Assembly: GCA_965215265.1 (NCBI GenBank)
Contig: OZ244048.1
Coordinates: forward strand, 4,640,001-4,704,000
Source of the DNA: Candidatus Poribacteria bacterium
GTDB lineage: Bacteria > Poribacteria > WGA-4E > WGA-3G
Direction of reading: 5' to 3'
DNA: 64,000 nucleotides
The notes under the pieces are model-generated. The model was not told where the DNA came from. It saw only the letters and a program-made list of their open reading frames with translations, and did not search any database. The translations under genes and the position numbers were made by a program. This document shows, one piece after another, positions 32,076 through 59,668 of this stretch. The first letter of the stretch is position 1, and each line of letters starts with the position of its first letter.

Positions 32076-32515
32076 GCTGGGGGGGGGGGCTCCGTCTCTT
32101 ATCATGTCCGACCTACCCTCGCCTTTCACTTTATCCTTTGTGGCAATCCTTCCATTTCCTGATGAGAGCTGCCCCATGCTTGCACAGGAATGTTATGGCC
32201 CCCAGTGTCGCGGTACACAAAGCCAGTGACTCAAAGACGTACCACTTGTCAAACCACATCCCAAAGAACTTGAAATGAAAAGCCTCTCGATAACGAGATT
32301 GAAACAACATTACGGTTGCAATCTTGAATACAAGATATGTCTCAAGGTTCGGGGGAGAAGGTGTAAGCCTTGCTATTGCGAGCAACTTGCGTTAATCCCA
32401 CAATCTCTCTGCACAAGGGAACTTACAAATTCTCTAGCTTCAGTTGGGAGAACATGTCAATTGGCTGTGAGAACCAATATTTTTAGTTTTTCTGGAAACA
32501 GGTCATCTCACATTA

Positions 32516-52811: not shown

Positions 52812-55016
52812 TCACACCGAAACCTCCACAATCGTCATGGTATCATTGCCGAAAATGTCTACGACTTTGACAGCGAGTTTGTACCGGCCCGGCGGGCATT
52901 CATGGGCCACGCTAGTCAATTCCAACGAGCGATCTTTCTTGGTGCGGAAGCTCTGCCACTCATTTTCAAAGACGTAGTCGCCTGTCCACTGCTCTTCCCA
53001 CTCGCCTGTGTCGGGATGTTGCACTCGGATAATTTCACGTTTGCTCTCGAAGTCAAAATCAACAGACCAGTAATCGATCCAGTCTGTCCAGTGCTTGGTC
53101 AATACTTCGCGGCTATAAACGCCGTCTGCATCTCTGCTGATTTTCACAACTTGTCCCTGCTCTACCACGATGCGACTGCCTTTCTTTCTGAGCTTCTCCT
53201 CAGCATGAGCGATAGAATCCTGCGAGTAAAACACGGAGAAGTCCGTTAGTTCAACGGCTACGGTAGAGCAACCCCTATCTTTTTCTGCTGATGTGATAAT
53301 CGGCTTAGCTTCAATAAACGCCACATCGTGGAACACGACCTGCCCTTGCTCCACTGCACGCTTGTCAAATACCTCGGCAGGGATGTATTTCGGTAGGAGG
53401 TCAATCCCTTTGCTTTTGGCTTCCCCTAAGAGGTTCGGAAAAAGTCCCATTTCAAATTCAAACCCGAGGATGTCCACGCGCGTGATGCGATGCTTACGGC
53501 ATTCAAGGATGATTTCCTCGACGAATAGGCGCGTTACGGGCAGATTGACGGGCCCAACTGCCACAAGCCGCCCCGCTTTTACGCCTTGAAAAGCGATGAA
53601 ACCGTCAGCCTTTTCAGCCGCATACGCGCGCAGGATGAGGTCGATGAACGCCGCCTCTTTTTCCTCTCGTTGACGTTGTGCTAATTTTTCACGAACCCTC
53701 TCTAACTCCCCTTTGTCAGAGGGATAACTTAACTCATGATAAGGGGGGGGGGGTTGGACGGTTGCACCGATGTAGTGCTGCCGTTCATACTTGCCGAGGT
53801 TGAGAATTTCAAAAGCCCGGTAGTCTTTGCCATCCGCCTTCAGTTGCCTCTGCACAGCAATCATCCGCTTGCGCGTCGTATGGATAGCGAACTTACCAAG
53901 ATCCGTTGCAATCCACTTGCGCCCTAACTTTTCAGCAACGGCGGCAGTCGTGCCGGAGCCACAGAAAAAGTCAGCGACAAGGTCGCCGTCGTTGGACGAG
54001 GCTTTGATGATACGCTCGAGGAGGGCTTCCCTTTTTTGAGTGGGATAGTTCAAATATTCTGCAGACCTAGCATCTTGTTGAAAAGAATTAATGTCATGCC
54101 AAGTATCAGGAACCGCTATGCCTTGAAGTTCATCAAGATACTGTTTTTTCCCGCTGCCTCTGTCTCTATATTTTCTGCCATCTGCATCAACCCTTTTGAA
54201 TATTTTTAAATACTTCTCATCATAAGGTAAAAACTGTTTATTGAAAATTTTTCTATCGTGATTTTTTGAATAGAACAGAATTGTCTCGTGGCTTCTTATC
54301 CAATTATTAACTGCGGATTTGTAGCCTGACTTTGTATCAAAGAACCAAATCACCTCCCGTTCAAAATTATTCTTATTTCCAAATATTTCATCTAAGAGCA
54401 GACGAACATGGCTATTCACCCGCCAATCACAATGCACGTAAATACTGCCGTCCTCGCTCAGCAGATCGTACATCAGTGCCAACCGTTCATAAATCATAGC
54501 AAGGAAGGAGTCTGTGCCTTTGCCCCAGGTGTCACGGTAGGCAATCTCTTCAAGGATGTTTGGTGCTTTGGGAAAGGGTTCCTCATCCTCACCAATCTTG
54601 ATATTTATAGAAAAATCCGCACCCACGTCAAACGGTGGGTCGATATAGATGAGTTTGAGTCCGCCTTGTGCTTCAATCTCCTCACGCATCGGTCCGTTCT
54701 TGAGCGATGACAAAACCAATTTGTTATCGCCCCAGGTCAGCTTATTCGTCCATCCTTTAAGTTGGCGGCCGCGCTCGTCGAAAAGGGCGAGTTGCTGCCC
54801 GGTCGTTTCTGGTTTCTCTGTACGTGGTTCATCTACCTGCTCGATGGTCTGGAACGGGAGGACGGTGTTGCCCACTTCGCCGGTCTTGCCGTTCCAGACG
54901 AGTTCTACTTCGCGTTTGTCGTCGAAGAGCAGAAAGCGGTATTTGTCGGGGAGTGGTTTGTCTGCCTCAATAAAGCGGATGATTTCTTGTTGTTCTTGTT
55001 CAGTGAGTCGTGGCAT
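52812..55016 (-). CDS. mod: Type III R-M modification methyltransferase (N6-adenine, beta class)
   Basis: 'LIYIDPPF' precedes 'DFFCGSGTT'; C-terminal 'VKVVDIFGND'; lies downstream of res. Confidence 0.9.
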   Translation of the reverse strand: MPRLTEQEQQEIIRFIEADKPLPDKYRFLLFDDKREVELVWNGKTGEVGNTVLPFQTIEQVDEPRTEKPETTGQQLALFDERGRQLKGWTNKLTWGDNKLVLSSLKNGPMREEIEAQGGLKLIYIDPPFDVGADFSINIKIGEDEEPFPKAPNILEEIAYRDTWGKGTDSFLAMIYERLALMYDLLSEDGSIYVHCDWRVNSHVRLLLDEIFGNKNNFEREVIWFFDTKSGYKSAVNNWIRSHETILFYSKNHDRKIFNKQFLPYDEKYLKIFKRVDADGRKYRDRGSGKKQYLDELQGIAVPDTWHDINSFQQDARSAEYLNYPTQKREALLERIIKASSNDGDLVADFFCGSGTTAAVAEKLGRKWIATDLGKFAIHTTRKRMIAVQRQLKADGKDYRAFEILNLGKYERQHYIGATVQPPPPYHELSYPSDKGELERVREKLAQRQREEKEAAFIDLILRAYAAEKADGFIAFQGVKAGRLVAVGPVNLPVTRLFVEEIILECRKHRITRVDILGFEFEMGLFPNLLGEAKSKGIDLLPKYIPAEVFDKRAVEQGQVVFHDVAFIEAKPIITSAEKDRGCSTVAVELTDFSVFYSQDSIAHAEEKLRKKGSRIVVEQGQVVKISRDADGVYSREVLTKHWTDWIDYWSVDFDFESKREIIRVQHPDTGEWEEQWTGDYVFENEWQSFRTKKDRSLELTSVAHECPPGRYKLAVKVVDIFGNDTMTIVEVSV

Positions 55017-55087
55017 GGGTTTCTCTCATTTCATTAGATTCTTCGGGTTGAGAAACAGGGGGTGTCACTTCTGTAAAACAGAGTTAA

Positions 55088-55689
55088 TTACCAAATTCTG
55101 TCAAGCCCGTAAGTTAGTTCAATATGTGCTTTCATACCTCGGTCAGTAACATTGACAAGATTTTTGAAGAACGCCTCAGTCTCTTGAATCGTCTTGCTCG
55201 TTAGTCGGATTCTCCCACTCGATGATTGTGTCCAATTGTAAGCTGGCATATCAAAACCGTGTGCGAAACTATGGCGAACACGTAATATCTCATTCAATCG
55301 CTCCCGAACCTGCAAGCTTACCATTCCCCGTCGAATCCAGACCCAATCGTCAATTGGATCATATCCTGTGTATTGGACAAGAAGGTTGCGTGTATTTTCC
55401 CAGTTTGGCGTATTAATCTTGTCAAAGCATTTTCTGCTGTGCCCTTAGCGAGTGTGTATACAGCATCAAATTTTAGGTTCAAGGGCTCTGCTATCACATT
55501 GTAGAAGTTACGCACCAAGTTGCTTATGTATGCGTTCCAGGCTGCGACGTAAGCTGCAAGTGCTGCGTGATAGTAAACCTGTTTTTCATCACGCGACGTA
55601 GGTCTCAATCGGCTATCTGTTGCTGTTCTGCGAAGTGTCCGTATGTGACCTACTGCGATGCTGTACTTCAATGCTGCTGGCGATGGCAC
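55088..55689 (-). pseudogene. HEPN-domain protein (RxxxxH) split by a 1-bp frameshift
   Basis: Adding one T at ~55415 joins the two ORFs into ~200 aa: ...ALTRFNTPNWEN...LNEILRVRHSFAHG. Confidence 0.7.
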
Positions 55690-55698
55690 AAGAAACCT

Positions 55699-56820
55699 TT
55701 AAAGATAACTTACAAATTCAGTGAGTGCTTCTCGATACCCCTCTAAAGGTCCAGGGTTGATTTGAACCTGTTTACCGTGAACTTTATTTGGTCCGGCACG
55801 AAGGCTATTTAAAGGTATTCCTTTAATTGTCATAACCACACAAGCACTGTGATAGTCGGGTATTTCTATGAACCTTTCGCTTGGTAACGCTTTCGGTGTT
55901 GCATAGATTTGGCGATGCTTCTTGTGAAGATCATCTAACGTTCTTTTAATAGATGCACTCACTGCCTCGAACGCCATGCTTGCTTTGCCGCGATAAAGGG
56001 TTACGCGGTTACTGACGAAGGTGTGAAGTTTGGGAATATCCAAACCTTCTTCCTTCGCTCTGTTGGTAAAGTTGATTCTCGCATAAGTTTCTATCTTCGG
56101 GTCACCCTCACCGATACTGTATCCATAAAGCAGCGCGACGACATTCTCCACAGCCCTACGCGAACTATCATCAGGTGTAAAAGGCACGACAAGATTTTCG
56201 GCAGCAGCGAGTGCCAATTGGGTGTAGATAGCGAAACTCGGATTACAGTCAATAATGAAGAGCGTATCTCTGTCTCCGCTTCGCTTACGCAACGCGATTG
56301 TTAGATCTTTGATCCAGCAGAGTACCTGTTTCCATGCATTTATTGGGATAGCGAGTTGAGATGTCTGGCGAATCGCCTCCGATAGAATTTCCAACAGATA
56401 ATCGCCGCAAACCAAAAGTAAATTGATTGGAAGCTTTGGGTTAAAGTCCCGAGGGCGACACACATAGGGAGATACATCCTTGATAGACTGAAAGGGAGAA
56501 TTCAGCCGTGCTTCTAGATAGCCCGCGACTGTAGCACGAGGTGTTTTCTCTATCAGTTTGTGTATCACATCATAATTTTTGTGAGTGACATTATAATCAA
56601 TTGGAAACATTTCGTCGGAATTAGTTGAAGACAATTGGTTGGGATTAATTAACGCCTCGGAATTCAGTAGTAACATCTCAGAGATATTTGCCTGCGGGCA
56701 GAGGTCTATAACATAAACATCGGTGCCCGGGTTAGCACGGGCATATTCAGTTGCTGCAACAAAAGCTAAGAAACTTTTGCCAACCCCGCCCTTGTTGTTC
56801 CAGAATGCATAAGTTATCAT
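55699..56820 (-). CDS. ParA/Soj-like ATPase
   Basis: Deviant Walker A 'NNKGGVGKS', 'IDLCPQAN', 'IDCNPS'; SD GAGG. Confidence 0.88.
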   Translation of the reverse strand: MITYAFWNNKGGVGKSFLAFVAATEYARANPGTDVYVIDLCPQANISEMLLLNSEALINPNQLSSTNSDEMFPIDYNVTHKNYDVIHKLIEKTPRATVAGYLEARLNSPFQSIKDVSPYVCRPRDFNPKLPINLLLVCGDYLLEILSEAIRQTSQLAIPINAWKQVLCWIKDLTIALRKRSGDRDTLFIIDCNPSFAIYTQLALAAAENLVVPFTPDDSSRRAVENVVALLYGYSIGEGDPKIETYARINFTNRAKEEGLDIPKLHTFVSNRVTLYRGKASMAFEAVSASIKRTLDDLHKKHRQIYATPKALPSERFIEIPDYHSACVVMTIKGIPLNSLRAGPNKVHGKQVQINPGPLEGYREALTEFVSYL

Positions 56821-56897
56821 AATACAATCCTCTTAAAAGGGAAATTTTATCAACCTCAACCTCAAGAATAGCAGGAACATGGTTCGTTATTCACACG

Positions 56898-59582
56898 CTA
56901 TGAGGTTTTGTACTCGTTGAAGCCGTCGAGCAGCTGCTGAAAGGTTTCCGGTCTATATGTCTCAAAGCTCCCTTGATCGACGTAGACGAAATCATAATCA
57001 ACATCTGACGTGGCTCTGTTGACATCCTCACACCATTGTGCCAGTCGGTGCATCTTGCGCGGTACATCCAGATCTTCTCTGCCCTTGGTTTCGACGACAA
57101 TCACGCGTCCGTCCGTCAACTTGACGAGGAAGTCCGGGTAGTAATTGGCGATGTCTCCGTCTGCGGTGACGTAATCGAGTTTAAAATGCACCGCATAGTA
57201 GTTTTTAGCGTAGGCAGTGACATCGGGGCAGTTTTCCAAAAATGCAGCGAATTTTAATTCAAGATTCCTATCCCCGGTAATTTTATTGAACACGGATTTT
57301 TGGGGAATTAAGTATTTCTGCTCTTTCACCATAAAAGGTTGCGTATCTTGCACTCTGACCGTCTCGCTCAATTGTGCATTCCCTTTATCCCGTATCGTGA
57401 GCGCGTTAATGGCACGCTTGAAAGTCTCGATGACGGTTTTCGTAGCCGGGCTTTCCGCCAGATTGCTCAAAGTAAAGGGGTTATCCAACGCCACCGTCTC
57501 GCCAAACAGGTGGTGCTGAACAAACTTCTTCACCTTTGGGTATAGCACCTCATAACCGCTGACGAGTCGTAACTCTTTCATGATCGTCTGTGCGAAATAG
57601 CCGAGTGCACTGCGGTAATCTTCAACCCCGGGGCCCTCCATTACTGTGGTATGGGAAACTTCGCCCGTTGTCATGTATTCAAACCTAATTTCCCGGATCT
57701 CCGTTTCGAGGGACTCCTGATAGGTTATAGGGACAAACTCAAGTTGTGCAAGATCCAAGTCAGCCAGATTTTTGTATTCACGATAGACGCGGCGCGTGAG
57801 TATCGGAATCTCAATATCGAGTGCGTCGATGTGCTTGTTAGGGTTCTCTTTATCGACCTCAATTACGAGCGGGGTTTTGGGTTTCGTGGCTTCACCCATG
57901 GGTTGACGTTCTAATTCGACACCCTCCTCTTGGATTTGCTCAATGAAATCCATGAAGGCCTTGGTTCCGACCACGCTCACAGATTCGTTCACTGCGTTGG
58001 GATACATCCGGCGGAGCCCGCGGCCTAACGTCTGCTCCGGTAAAATGTTGCTTTTGGCGGAATAGGCCCGGAGTCCGACAATGGTTGTAACGTTTTTGAC
58101 ATCCCATCCCTCCTTGAGCATCAACACGGAGACGATCGCCTTGTAGGGGTTATCCGGTGAATCAATCTCATTTGCCTGTTTACGGAGTTTCTCTAATTCT
58201 TCTTTGCTCTTACCGGATGTCGCTTCTGAAATTTCACCATTTTTCTTGGTGTGAATCACCAGAACAGAATTTTTGAGTTGTGGGTAGCGTTTTTCCAGAT
58301 AATCCGCGACTTCATCGCAGTTTTTGGTATCATCAGTCATCACAAACAGGATGGCTTTCTTTCCGAGTTTTTCATGTTCTACGAATGCTTTTTGCCACTC
58401 AATGATGCCGAGTTCAAGGTAATCAGCGTATTTCTCTGTGTATTTCGCGCTTTGCCGCTCAACAAGTTTCGTTCTGCTCTCTGCATCGGGGAGCACCGGG
58501 TGCTTGACCACGTTTTGCGAGATTGCCTCGACGAGGGGATAATCTGCGACCGTCTGTACAAAAATTGCGCCGTCGTTATGCTTAGGTGTGGCGGTTACGT
58601 CCACTTGTAATGCGAGTTCACTGCCTTTTTGCAAGAGACGGTTGTGGATATCCTCAATGGACTTGAACCATGCCATCTGAGGGTTATGGATATGATGTGC
58701 CTCATCGTTGAGCACCATCAGTTCGTCTATGTCCCGTACAATATCTCCGAGGTCTACCTTAGAGTCTGTGGTTGCGCCTGTGGGTTTTTTGCCGAAGAAG
58801 TAGTCCATACTATTGTCATCGTGCGGTGAGGGGTGGGCCTGGTCACTGGGATAGACACGGTGGATATTGGTTAGAAAGATGTTGCTGGTGGGTTGGGTGA
58901 CGCGGGCTTCATCCTGCAGGTGTAACGTCAGTTGAAAATCGTCGCGCCAGTTGTGCCCTTCAAAACCGTTGTTGGGTAACACCGGGTCTTCAGAGAAGAT
59001 ACGCAGCCCCTGAAAATCGTGATAGAGGCGGTCAAGCACAATGATATTAGGGGCGATAACGAGAAAGTTTCGCGAGAGTTGGGAGTCTGGTTCATACAGT
59101 TTGTGAAAGAAACTCCAGGCAATTGCAAGGCTCATCACCTTTGTTTTTCCTGTCCCTGTTGCCATTTTTATGACAAACCGTCGCCAGTTTTCGTCAAATA
59201 GTCCGGTCGAAATAGTGCCGGAACTGTCAAAGCGCATCAGATCAAATTTATTCCTCACTTTGACGACATCATGAAGATAGATGATGGTTTCGAGTGCCTC
59301 GCGTTGTGCGAAGTAATACTGAAACTTGCTCGCTCTGCCATCTGGCTGTTCTCGTGGGTGCGGCGTATTAAACCACCAATTGAGAAGTGCCCGGCTTGTC
59401 TCGGAAGCACCTTTGTAGTTGTCATCGCGCCACGTTTTGACCTGCTTTCGGATTTTTTGGACAAGCGGGGGCAGTAACATGCCATAGGGGGCTTCACGCA
59501 GCAGTGTTTCATCCGGAAGCCAGCGTACTGAAGGATCCATTATTGCGTATGGAGATTCGGGGAAGTCCCTGTGTAGTGCCAT
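56898..59582 (-). CDS. res: Type III R-M restriction subunit (helicase + PD-(D/E)xK nuclease)
   Basis: 'MATGTGKT', 'DEAH', 'TAT', 'LKEGWDV', 'QTLGRGLR', 'YYPDF...VETKG'. Confidence 0.9.
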   Translation of the reverse strand: MALHRDFPESPYAIMDPSVRWLPDETLLREAPYGMLLPPLVQKIRKQVKTWRDDNYKGASETSRALLNWWFNTPHPREQPDGRASKFQYYFAQREALETIIYLHDVVKVRNKFDLMRFDSSGTISTGLFDENWRRFVIKMATGTGKTKVMSLAIAWSFFHKLYEPDSQLSRNFLVIAPNIIVLDRLYHDFQGLRIFSEDPVLPNNGFEGHNWRDDFQLTLHLQDEARVTQPTSNIFLTNIHRVYPSDQAHPSPHDDNSMDYFFGKKPTGATTDSKVDLGDIVRDIDELMVLNDEAHHIHNPQMAWFKSIEDIHNRLLQKGSELALQVDVTATPKHNDGAIFVQTVADYPLVEAISQNVVKHPVLPDAESRTKLVERQSAKYTEKYADYLELGIIEWQKAFVEHEKLGKKAILFVMTDDTKNCDEVADYLEKRYPQLKNSVLVIHTKKNGEISEATSGKSKEELEKLRKQANEIDSPDNPYKAIVSVLMLKEGWDVKNVTTIVGLRAYSAKSNILPEQTLGRGLRRMYPNAVNESVSVVGTKAFMDFIEQIQEEGVELERQPMGEATKPKTPLVIEVDKENPNKHIDALDIEIPILTRRVYREYKNLADLDLAQLEFVPITYQESLETEIREIRFEYMTTGEVSHTTVMEGPGVEDYRSALGYFAQTIMKELRLVSGYEVLYPKVKKFVQHHLFGETVALDNPFTLSNLAESPATKTVIETFKRAINALTIRDKGNAQLSETVRVQDTQPFMVKEQKYLIPQKSVFNKITGDRNLELKFAAFLENCPDVTAYAKNYYAVHFKLDYVTADGDIANYYPDFLVKLTDGRVIVVETKGREDLDVPRKMHRLAQWCEDVNRATSDVDYDFVYVDQGSFETYRPETFQQLLDGFNEYKTS

Positions 59583-59638
59583 CTTTCTCTTTTTCCTTAT
59601 TGACTGGAACACCTTAGCTTAATTAACAGATGTATTAA

Positions 59639-59668
59639 AGTTTAGCACAAAGTGGTATTGAATGTCAA
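59639..59668 (-). promoter_or_regulatory. Sigma70 promoter of the res-parA-HEPN-mod operon
   Basis: Minus strand TTGACA, 18-bp spacer, TAAACT with extended TG. Confidence 0.6.

Follow-up and report, generated by a model that had tools for sequence, protein, structure and literature searches.

We have analyzed a ParA-like ATPase and an adjacent small HEPN protein that are encoded between the restriction (res) and methyltransferase (mod) genes of a Type III-like restriction-modification (R-M) operon in a Candidatus Poribacteria bacterium (GenBank assembly GCA_965215265.1). The window, as we call the whole stretch of DNA under study, comprises 64,000 nucleotides (nt) of contig OZ244048.1, positions 4,640,001 to 4,704,000. 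In our reading, to which we assign a probability of about 0.62, ParA and HEPN constitute a conflict module of the toxin-antitoxin (TA) or abortive-infection (Abi) kind that is complete with its two genes, is mobile between lineages and is carried as cargo in a widespread Type III-like R-M operon of Poribacteria. The ATPase carries a deviant Walker A motif, the protein encoded next to it is a HEPN protein of the Rx4-6H type, frameshifted in the window copy, and the neighbourhood of the two is kept across distant genomes, as is to be expected of a ParA-HEPN dyad. An earlier note on this DNA had put the module forward as a candidate undescribed one. The dyad, however, was predicted in 2013 (Anantharaman et al., PMC3710099), and ParA-effector systems are the subject of a 2026 preprint (Li, Burroughs and Aravind, bioRxiv 10.64898/2026.10.19.760177), so that we present the pair as a clean example and not as a new system.

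As evidenced by a ParA protein scan over one genome per species, which returned 68 loci, the two genes are tightly linked. Poribacteria account for 33 labelled loci, to which 3 unlabelled contigs of metagenome-assembled genomes are added as being of the same type; the others are from 23 cyanobacteria, mostly filamentous, 2 Caldilineaceae (Chloroflexota), 1 Frankia, 1 Luteolibacter and, with an identity of only 36%, 5 Streptomyces. HEPN lies directly downstream of ParA in 55 of the 68 loci. It is intact in 49 of them (48 by an uninterrupted full-length match and L057 by its open reading frame, ORF) and damaged or truncated in 6 (L018, L030, L044, L046, L055 and L066). The spacer between the two genes measures 8-12 nt in nearly all loci, and the HEPN motif reads RHSFAH in every locus but one, where it is RHTLAH. 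The 13 loci without HEPN comprise 7 of the Poribacteria type, the 5 Streptomyces and 1 contig that ends at ParA. On a Ralstonia megaplasmid, a ParA of 46% identity is likewise followed by a HEPN protein of 200 amino acids (aa), beside an IS630-like gene. A third conserved gene was not found in these loci: nothing is conserved upstream, and the gene after HEPN may be mod, a small ORF, a gene for a protein with two transmembrane segments (2TM), an Mrr-like gene or a housekeeping gene. The two genes appear to be inherited together, and the pairwise distances of their proteins correlate with a Mantel r of 0.86 that 0 of 999 permutations reach, a correlation that fits co-inheritance and that a shared species history would also yield.

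The sequence of the ATPase matches the profiles AAA_31 and CbiA, the NCBIfam model ParA_partition (9.6e-11) and phrog_164 (ParA-like). Its deviant Walker A motif is NKGGVGKS, and across 49 sequences of a family with lengths of about 342-373 aa the columns K10, G11, G12, G14, K15, D39 and D191 are invariant, including the Walker A lysines and the Walker A' and Walker B aspartates. The predicted model reached a pLDDT of 81.6, with low confidence for an acidic insert at residues 56-82, and Foldseek returned McdA, Soj, ParA, the delta protein and DIP2308 at 1e-9, so that the model presents the protein with a ParA/Soj/McdA fold. ATPases of the ParA type that possess such a deviant motif form ATP-dependent sandwich dimers.

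Intact homologues of the HEPN protein have a length of 200 aa, and R139, H140, A143 and H144 are invariant in 46 sequences. HEPN proteins with an Rx4-6H motif are metal-independent RNases whose active site is located at the dimer interface. All three intact homologues tested pass the cut-off of the HEPN_RiboL-PSP family (40.2, 32.6 and 37.5 bits against 28.4), while the 78-aa ORF of the window remains below it at 25.2 bits; Pfam contains a separate MAE_28990/MAE_18760 model. The predicted model reached a pLDDT of 91.5, and in a wide VIA-align search 9 of the 10 top matches were, in part by their entry titles, HEPN proteins. The Z-scores of these ten, 7.6-9.2 (SO_3166 9.2, 4nqf 8.9, TT1696 8.8, HI0074 8.3, HepT toxins 8.2, the C-terminal region of AbiA 8.1; HepS followed at rank 11 with 7.4), fall within 7-9, the range of chance matches among helical bundles, and are not decisive alone. 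The HEPN fold and the RxxxxH motif postulated in the earlier note are thus found in the intact homologues, by the Pfam cut-off, the structural matches and the invariant Rx4H. Comparison of the model with the PDB by Foldseek returned nothing at E <= 0.001, and the sequence profile returned nothing among PDB chains at E <= 1. No family in PHROGs matches the protein, and longer fused proteins containing this HEPN were not found at E <= 1e-5, the latter being weak evidence.

In the window itself, the HEPN gene is distributed over two reading frames (Table 1). Residues 1-92 of the N-terminal frame are in frame with the homologues (tblastn), and in the alignment the window protein departs from the 46 intact homologues after ...ENALTR. 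The C-terminal frame is 56-77% identical to the C-terminal halves of the homologues, and an ATG within it, at 55324, overlaps with the stop codon that ends the N-terminal one. The lesion, AGATTTAAT -> AGA-TTAAT, is the loss of a single base that is present in 5 of 5 aligned homologues, and it shifts the frame after residue ~92, ahead of the nearly invariant motifs NTPN, GYDP and RHSFAH. A programmed -1 frameshift was rejected, as there is no slippery heptamer, the homologues are in frame and the additional base is present in one sequencing run. An assembly or sequencing error, with the gene intact in the living organism, would be in accord with the position of the lesion in a short T run and with a contig of public run X6, from a third study, that has the base at 55414. 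We nevertheless consider such an error unlikely, for the deletion is present in contigs of public runs from two separate studies (X1, depth 44; X4, depth 14), the contig from X6 (depth 6) has a 2-nt deletion of its own at 55642 in the same gene, and lesions of HEPN are seen in 6 of the 55 other loci. Note that the X4 contig (3239 nt) is identical to the window, that X1 or X4 may be the window's own source, and that the X7 contigs do not span the frameshift site. We read the deletion as a real, recent and strain-variable inactivation. The HEPN RNase arm is most likely dead in this genome, with ParA, Res and Mod predicted to be intact, and because its HEPN gene is frameshifted the module is probably inactive as an RNase here.

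The decay of the pair is asymmetric. In the window and in 5 further loci a damaged HEPN accompanies an intact ParA, both genes are damaged in 1, and an intact HEPN beside a broken ParA occurs in 0 of the assessable loci. Small as these numbers are, the asymmetry fits a requirement for ParA to keep HEPN harmless. At the same time ParA seems able to act alone or to employ other partners, as it is intact in the 7 Poribacteria loci without HEPN, where it is followed by a 2TM protein with a FlgT_C-like protein, by a CPBP-like protease or by an Mrr-like nuclease. These loci, and the intact ParA genes beside a broken HEPN, speak for a system centred on ParA as modelled in the 2026 preprint (10.64898/2026.10.19.760177), in which ParA would be the primary actor that intercepts or coats invading DNA, and HEPN would be a dispensable, swappable back-up effector as opposed to a toxin in need of restraint by ParA. 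In the same direction points the position of solo homologues, with an identity of about 36%, next to the repressor in temperate phages. The narrow 8-12 nt spacing and the co-inheritance, on the other hand, suggest a tight functional couple, and ParA is very conserved throughout, also in the C-terminal part, where the preprint expects rapidly evolving extensions. The failure to observe an intact HEPN with a broken ParA, a combination that would be permissible if HEPN were harmless without ParA, also argues against this model. We regard a ParA-centred system as possible but doubtful.

Two sets of neighbours of ParA were recorded alongside. In Poribacteria a recurrent pair in the res-mod interval encodes a membrane protein of ~155-190 aa and then a protein of ~135-185 aa with a FlgT_C-like match (24.8 bits, below cut-off). 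It has no PADLOC matches and always comes after ParA, with or without HEPN (L007:9196-10112, L021:3041-3909, L028:9059-10145, L002:10276-11243 and others), and could serve this ParA as an alternative effector module. Other ParA-adjacent cargo in this phylum comprises Rce1/CPBP-like intramembrane proteases and Mrr_cat-type nucleases (L023:9272-10135, L035:9191-10132, L004:9878-10783, L015:9856-10758). Distant solo relatives of ParA are found in Streptomyces (~36% identity; L062-L065, L068), in Tn7-like contexts with TnsA, TniB and a Mu-type transposase; others adjoin the repressor gene in temperate phages and in phage-like small replicons (L151, L152).

Outside Poribacteria the pair is independent of R-M genes: a res or mod homologue was found in 0 of the 32 loci, 17 of which entered a Pfam survey of the neighbours. 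There the pair lies between two nonribosomal peptide synthetase (NRPS) genes in 3 loci and adjoins TldD/PmbA in 4; further neighbours are CysRS with a TumE toxin, RNR with a C5-methylase fragment, and a B12-radical-SAM gene behind which the pair is placed. Defence-type neighbours do occur in some loci, namely a TIR-NB-ARC-TPR protein, an AAA_15/21 ATPase with NACHT, and a D12 methylase. For the most part, however, the surroundings outside Poribacteria are housekeeping or NRPS genes. In the three NRPS loci, all from cyanobacteria (L040:2794-13474, L042:3097-13870, L054:2820-13919), the pair is on the same strand as the two large NRPS genes and ~35-95 nt from each, a putative toxin-type cassette inside a biosynthetic operon.

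A scattered, mobile spread through housekeeping contexts, NRPS operons among them, would also be characteristic of a plain addiction module that has no role in defence and stabilises the segment of DNA on which it resides, in our case the R-M island. The TA-like architecture and the asymmetric decay are compatible with this, and the 2013 paper reads the dyad as a toxin-antitoxin system (PMC3710099). However, the pair recurs in the cargo slot of R-M operons together with other cargo of Abi or TA type, and in some loci defence genes are close by (TIR-NB-ARC, NACHT, the AAA_15/21 ATPase and methyltransferases). Addiction without any part in defence appears improbable to us; a TA module can at the same time serve in Abi.

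The relation to the R-M genes was followed from both sides. In the Poribacteria-type loci res and mod both flank ParA in 22 of 36, and remnants of one or both are left in 7 more. The res family is very widespread. A scan with res yielded 296 loci, and the following counts refer to the best 80 of these 296, of which 71 are from other phyla and 9 from Poribacteria. In 58 of the 71, mod is located directly or nearly directly upstream of res on the same strand, which is the canonical order, and in 0 downstream, the other 13 mostly having no upstream sequence; ParA or HEPN was found in 0 of the 71. In Poribacteria the order is different, as res precedes mod in all 9 loci, with 1-3.4 kb of cargo between the two. 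Six of these hold ParA, 5 of them with HEPN, and the remaining 3 have either HicA/HicB-like genes together with a 2TM protein or no ORF. Finally, L004, which is syntenic with the window (ABC permeases, SDR, formamidase), has lost res and retains a 63-aa remnant of mod, with ParA and HEPN both intact, and in six further Poribacteria loci the pair is found between housekeeping genes without R-M. Because of these contexts without R-M, the alternative cargo and the persistence of the pair in L004, we consider the pair an autonomous cassette and the res-mod interval a cargo slot.

The earlier note had put forward a dedicated R-M guard, and in this model the pair would monitor Res and Mod and free the HEPN RNase when a phage disables restriction, much as PrrC does with EcoprrI. 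The nesting on which that proposal was built is indeed recurrent in Poribacteria, both in the 22 loci with two flanks and in the 7 with remnants; all four genes are co-oriented with short gaps, and embedded second-line effectors in R-M operons are expected from the literature, in its available portions. As a general property of the pair, however, the tie to R-M does not stand: none of the 32 loci from other taxa has res or mod, and their contexts are unrelated to R-M, none of the 71 other res loci carries the pair, the same slot holds unrelated cargo with 3 of the 9 Poribacteria res loci devoid of ParA, L004 retains the pair after the loss of res and mod, and at least 6 Poribacteria loci have it among housekeeping genes without R-M. 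A guard in this strict sense is very unlikely, and an obligate functional tie of the pair to Res and Mod, judged from the gene neighbourhoods, is highly improbable.

Further cargo was noted by eye. The ParA-less Poribacteria intervals between res and mod (L087:9147-10033, L089:9059-10577) seem to encode small proteins of HicB and HicA type and a 155-aa protein with two transmembrane segments. In other phyla this R-M family often has further genes in its mod-res interval, and the proteins encoded there include a 286-aa protein (L091:5134-5994), a helix-turn-helix protein with an ImmA-like protein of 395 aa (L124:4337-5524), an ATPase of ~385 aa with a partner of ~200 aa (L101:4266-6001) and a 468-aa protein (L121:4054-5460).

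If ParA and HEPN do form a two-gene conflict module, its operation may be envisaged as follows. The HEPN protein would be an RNase with its Rx4H site formed at the dimer interface, and the ParA-type ATPase, as an ATP-dependent dimer, would act as a gate that holds this RNase silent in uninfected cells. Upon infection, a trigger, which may be foreign DNA or a phage product, would alter the nucleotide state or the DNA-bound state of ParA, HEPN would be released or activated, and cleavage of RNA and growth arrest would result. The RNase activity, its toxicity, the direction of regulation, the trigger and the target RNA are what we infer for this scheme. A prediction of the complex for ParA and HEPN of L045, made with alignments, scored 0.05 where the mark was 0.32, and counts neither way.

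Several observations weigh against the module as we read it, in addition to the Z-scores of the HEPN model mentioned above. A pure antitoxin role of ParA predicts something other than the 7 Poribacteria loci in which it is intact and conserved without HEPN. Both proteins are unusually conserved for genes engaged in an arms race, ParA being 59-66% identical between Poribacteria and cyanobacteria. The neighbours outside Poribacteria, mostly housekeeping genes and not defence islands, are weak support for defence as opposed to plain addiction. HEPN_RiboL-PSP was the sole HEPN family found at E <= 0.05, and the ParA-linked proteins of the 2013 paper are assigned to MAE_18760. Experimental work on a two-gene ParA-HEPN system, finally, was not found in the library searched.

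The features of the operon in the window are compiled in Table 1. All four genes lie on one strand in the order res, ParA, HEPN, mod, with intergenic gaps of 77 nt (res-ParA), 9 nt (ParA-HEPN) and 71 nt (HEPN-mod), and the arrangement described in the earlier note, including the 9-nt gap, agrees with the ORF positions. In profile searches Res matches ResIII (1.6e-17) and REase_III of PADLOC (6e-19), with weak matches to Helicase_C, TnsA-like and RE_endonuc; the match to the NCBIfam BPTD_3080 family is partial and reaches 282 bits where the cut-off is 800. By these profiles it is a Type III-like restriction subunit with a predicted helicase region in the N-terminal and a nuclease-like region in the C-terminal part. 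Its start is likely the inner ATG, as homologues of ~70-80% identity align from residue 11. Mod matches N6_N4_Mtase (1.1e-42) and MTase_III of PADLOC (6.3e-110), and its homologues align over the full length. Helicase and nuclease regions in Res, an N6/N4 methyltransferase as Mod and the common orientation of the two are the features of a Type III R-M system.

Table 1. Features of the res-ParA-HEPN-mod operon in the window.
Feature	Position	Strand	Remarks
res	56898-59612	-	ORF from GTG 59612; likely true start ATG 59582
ParA-like (SIMIBI) ATPase	55699-56820	-	373 aa, intact
HEPN, N-terminal open frame	55318-55689	-	GTG start, 123 codons; native only for the first ~92 residues
HEPN, C-terminal frame	55088-55444	-	stop to stop, 118 codons; contains NTPNWEN and RHSFAH (Rx4H)
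HEPN frameshift site	55414-55415	-	1-nt deletion; TTT in homologues, TT in the window
mod	52812-55016	-	Type III-like N6/N4 DNA methyltransferase, 734 aa, intact in the window
C11 homopolymer in mod	53743-53753	-	codes for PPPP, ~residues 422-425 of Mod
Promoter-like site	59639-59668	-	TTGACA-18-TAAACT, TG before the second hexamer, upstream of res; from a consensus scan only

ParA and HEPN are richer in AT than res, as had been remarked before, with a GC content of 0.440 and 0.453, respectively; res has 0.485, mod 0.487 and the window 0.484. The GC content at third codon positions is 0.42 for ParA versus 0.56 for res and 0.54 for mod, and because ParA falls below both genes in this respect a separate origin of the pair is suggested. 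The earlier observation that no parB is nearby also extends to the genome as a whole, since the single contig of 4.83 Mb, 95% complete, gave no match to ParB_N (PF02195) at E <= 0.001 in a search that was positive in 10 of 14 reference genomes. As for the one promoter assumed for all four genes, the best consensus match on the minus strand does lie upstream of res, but the region has no more sites of this kind than shuffled sequences do (10 versus 8.6 +/- 2.4), and a single promoter for the whole operon is plausible. A larger defence island around the operon was considered and rejected, as the operon is surrounded by housekeeping genes, which encode an HtrA-like protease, a formamidase, a dockerin protein, an SDR protein and ABC permeases.

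The mod gene contains a C11 homopolymer whose length varies among public sequencing runs: X1 agrees with the window, while 1 nt is missing from X4 and X7 and 2 nt from X6. Unless it reflects a homopolymer sequencing error, this variation makes mod a candidate for a phase-variable Type III gene in Poribacteria. Tracts of 8-12 G or C were also noted in the mod genes of L025/L071, L029 and L033, and in L025 the reading frame of mod switches close to the tract. The only other G/C run of at least 8 nt in the window is a G11 homopolymer at 32079-32089, outside any ORF of more than 107 codons. One might go further and imagine that the R-M system, with a hypervariable poly-C tract in mod, switches off by phase variation, and that the Poribacteria operon, with res first and mod last, was rebuilt as one transcription unit with a cargo bay, into which ParA and HEPN were wired as Abi cover for the times when the phase-variable R-M system is OFF; we give this extended scenario little chance of being correct. 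If it were true, an uncultured phylum of sponge symbionts would possess a phase-variable restriction system with a built-in back-up.

The case presented by this genome is an ordinary one, a cassette of a known kind with an inactivated RNase gene. Its relatives are of wider use: the dyad has been predicted twice by comparative genomics, and with 55 relatives it forms a compact and very conserved family, suited to a first experiment on the control of a HEPN RNase by a ParA-type ATPase. Nature supplies a series of states for this purpose, with the pair in the presence of R-M, the pair in its absence, ParA lacking HEPN, and HEPN broken. The res-cargo-mod arrangement of Poribacteria extends the idea of embedded defence genes to Type III-like systems, and it is this recurrent order, along with the possible phase variation of mod, that most merits a further look.

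In PrrC and RloC an ABC-type ATPase and the nuclease belong to one polypeptide, and PrrC depends on a Type Ic partner. The present pair resembles them as a putatively NTPase-regulated nuclease of the HEPN type within an R-M operon, which would become active when restriction fails, but it differs in that the ATPase is a separate SIMIBI protein of the ParA type, the surrounding R-M system is Type III-like, and the pair is widespread without R-M. Of the earlier comparison with these proteins the location inside an R-M operon was upheld, here and in 22 of the 36 Poribacteria-type loci. The ATPase is not of the ABC type and the two functions do not reside in one polypeptide; the analogy is a functional one only. 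With the type VII TA system HepT-MntA the pair shares a small HEPN protein, here a predicted RNase toxin, next to a gene for a putatively neutralising enzyme, and 5yep, 8xdj and 7ae2 are among the best structural matches of the HEPN model; the neighbour, however, is a ParA-type ATPase and not an MNT nucleotidyltransferase, and the ATPase gene comes first. HINPO, or PDC-M28 in PADLOC, likewise embeds a HEPN protein and a ParA-like protein in a defence operon, but there HEPN is upstream of the ParA-iNTase and a third gene encodes an ORC/STAND AAA+ ATPase that has no counterpart here. No model of PADLOC v2 matches ParA or HEPN.

Anantharaman et al. (PMC3710099) described a "less common gene dyad" of HEPN with a ParA/Soj-like ATPase, for which an antitoxin role was proposed, and the present pair, with a SIMIBI ATPase in the antitoxin position and a small Rx4-6H HEPN protein, conforms to it. 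That paper assigns the ParA-linked HEPN proteins to the MAE_18760 family and reports RiboL-PSP HEPN domains as fused to L-PSP or linked to ParB; our HEPN protein is a HEPN_RiboL-PSP match, and embedding in Type III R-M goes unmentioned for the dyad in the available part of the text. A preprint built on guilt by embedding (10.1101/2024.01.29.577857) surveyed, in the portion available, the genes that Hma, BREX, DISARM and Type I R-M systems harbour, and a description of ParA-HEPN nested in Type III operons was not found in the library searched. The 2026 preprint on "ParA-effector systems" (10.64898/2026.10.19.760177) treats these as immune systems, counts HEPN among the effectors, reports a HEPN subtype (ConB1 clade) that is enriched in multicellular bacteria, and places ParA genes within Type I R-M operons as second-line defences; the terms "Type III" and "Poribacteria" occur 0 times each in its main text. 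Our pair agrees with that subtype in consisting of two genes, and the multicellular hosts fit the filamentous cyanobacteria, Frankia, Streptomyces and Caldilineaceae of our scan, but the C-terminal extensions of those systems are expected to evolve rapidly, while the conservation of this ParA is high. RemAIN of the Gifsy-1 prophage, with the ATPase RemA, the immunity protein RemI and the HEPN anticodon nuclease RemN (PMC13043305), is, to judge from the matching descriptions, probably the tested Salmonella ParA-HeH-HEPN system cited by the preprint. It differs from our pair in having three genes including one for immunity, where we find no conserved third gene, but in its combination of an ATPase with a HEPN nuclease for phage defence RemAIN is the nearest experimentally studied relative in architecture.

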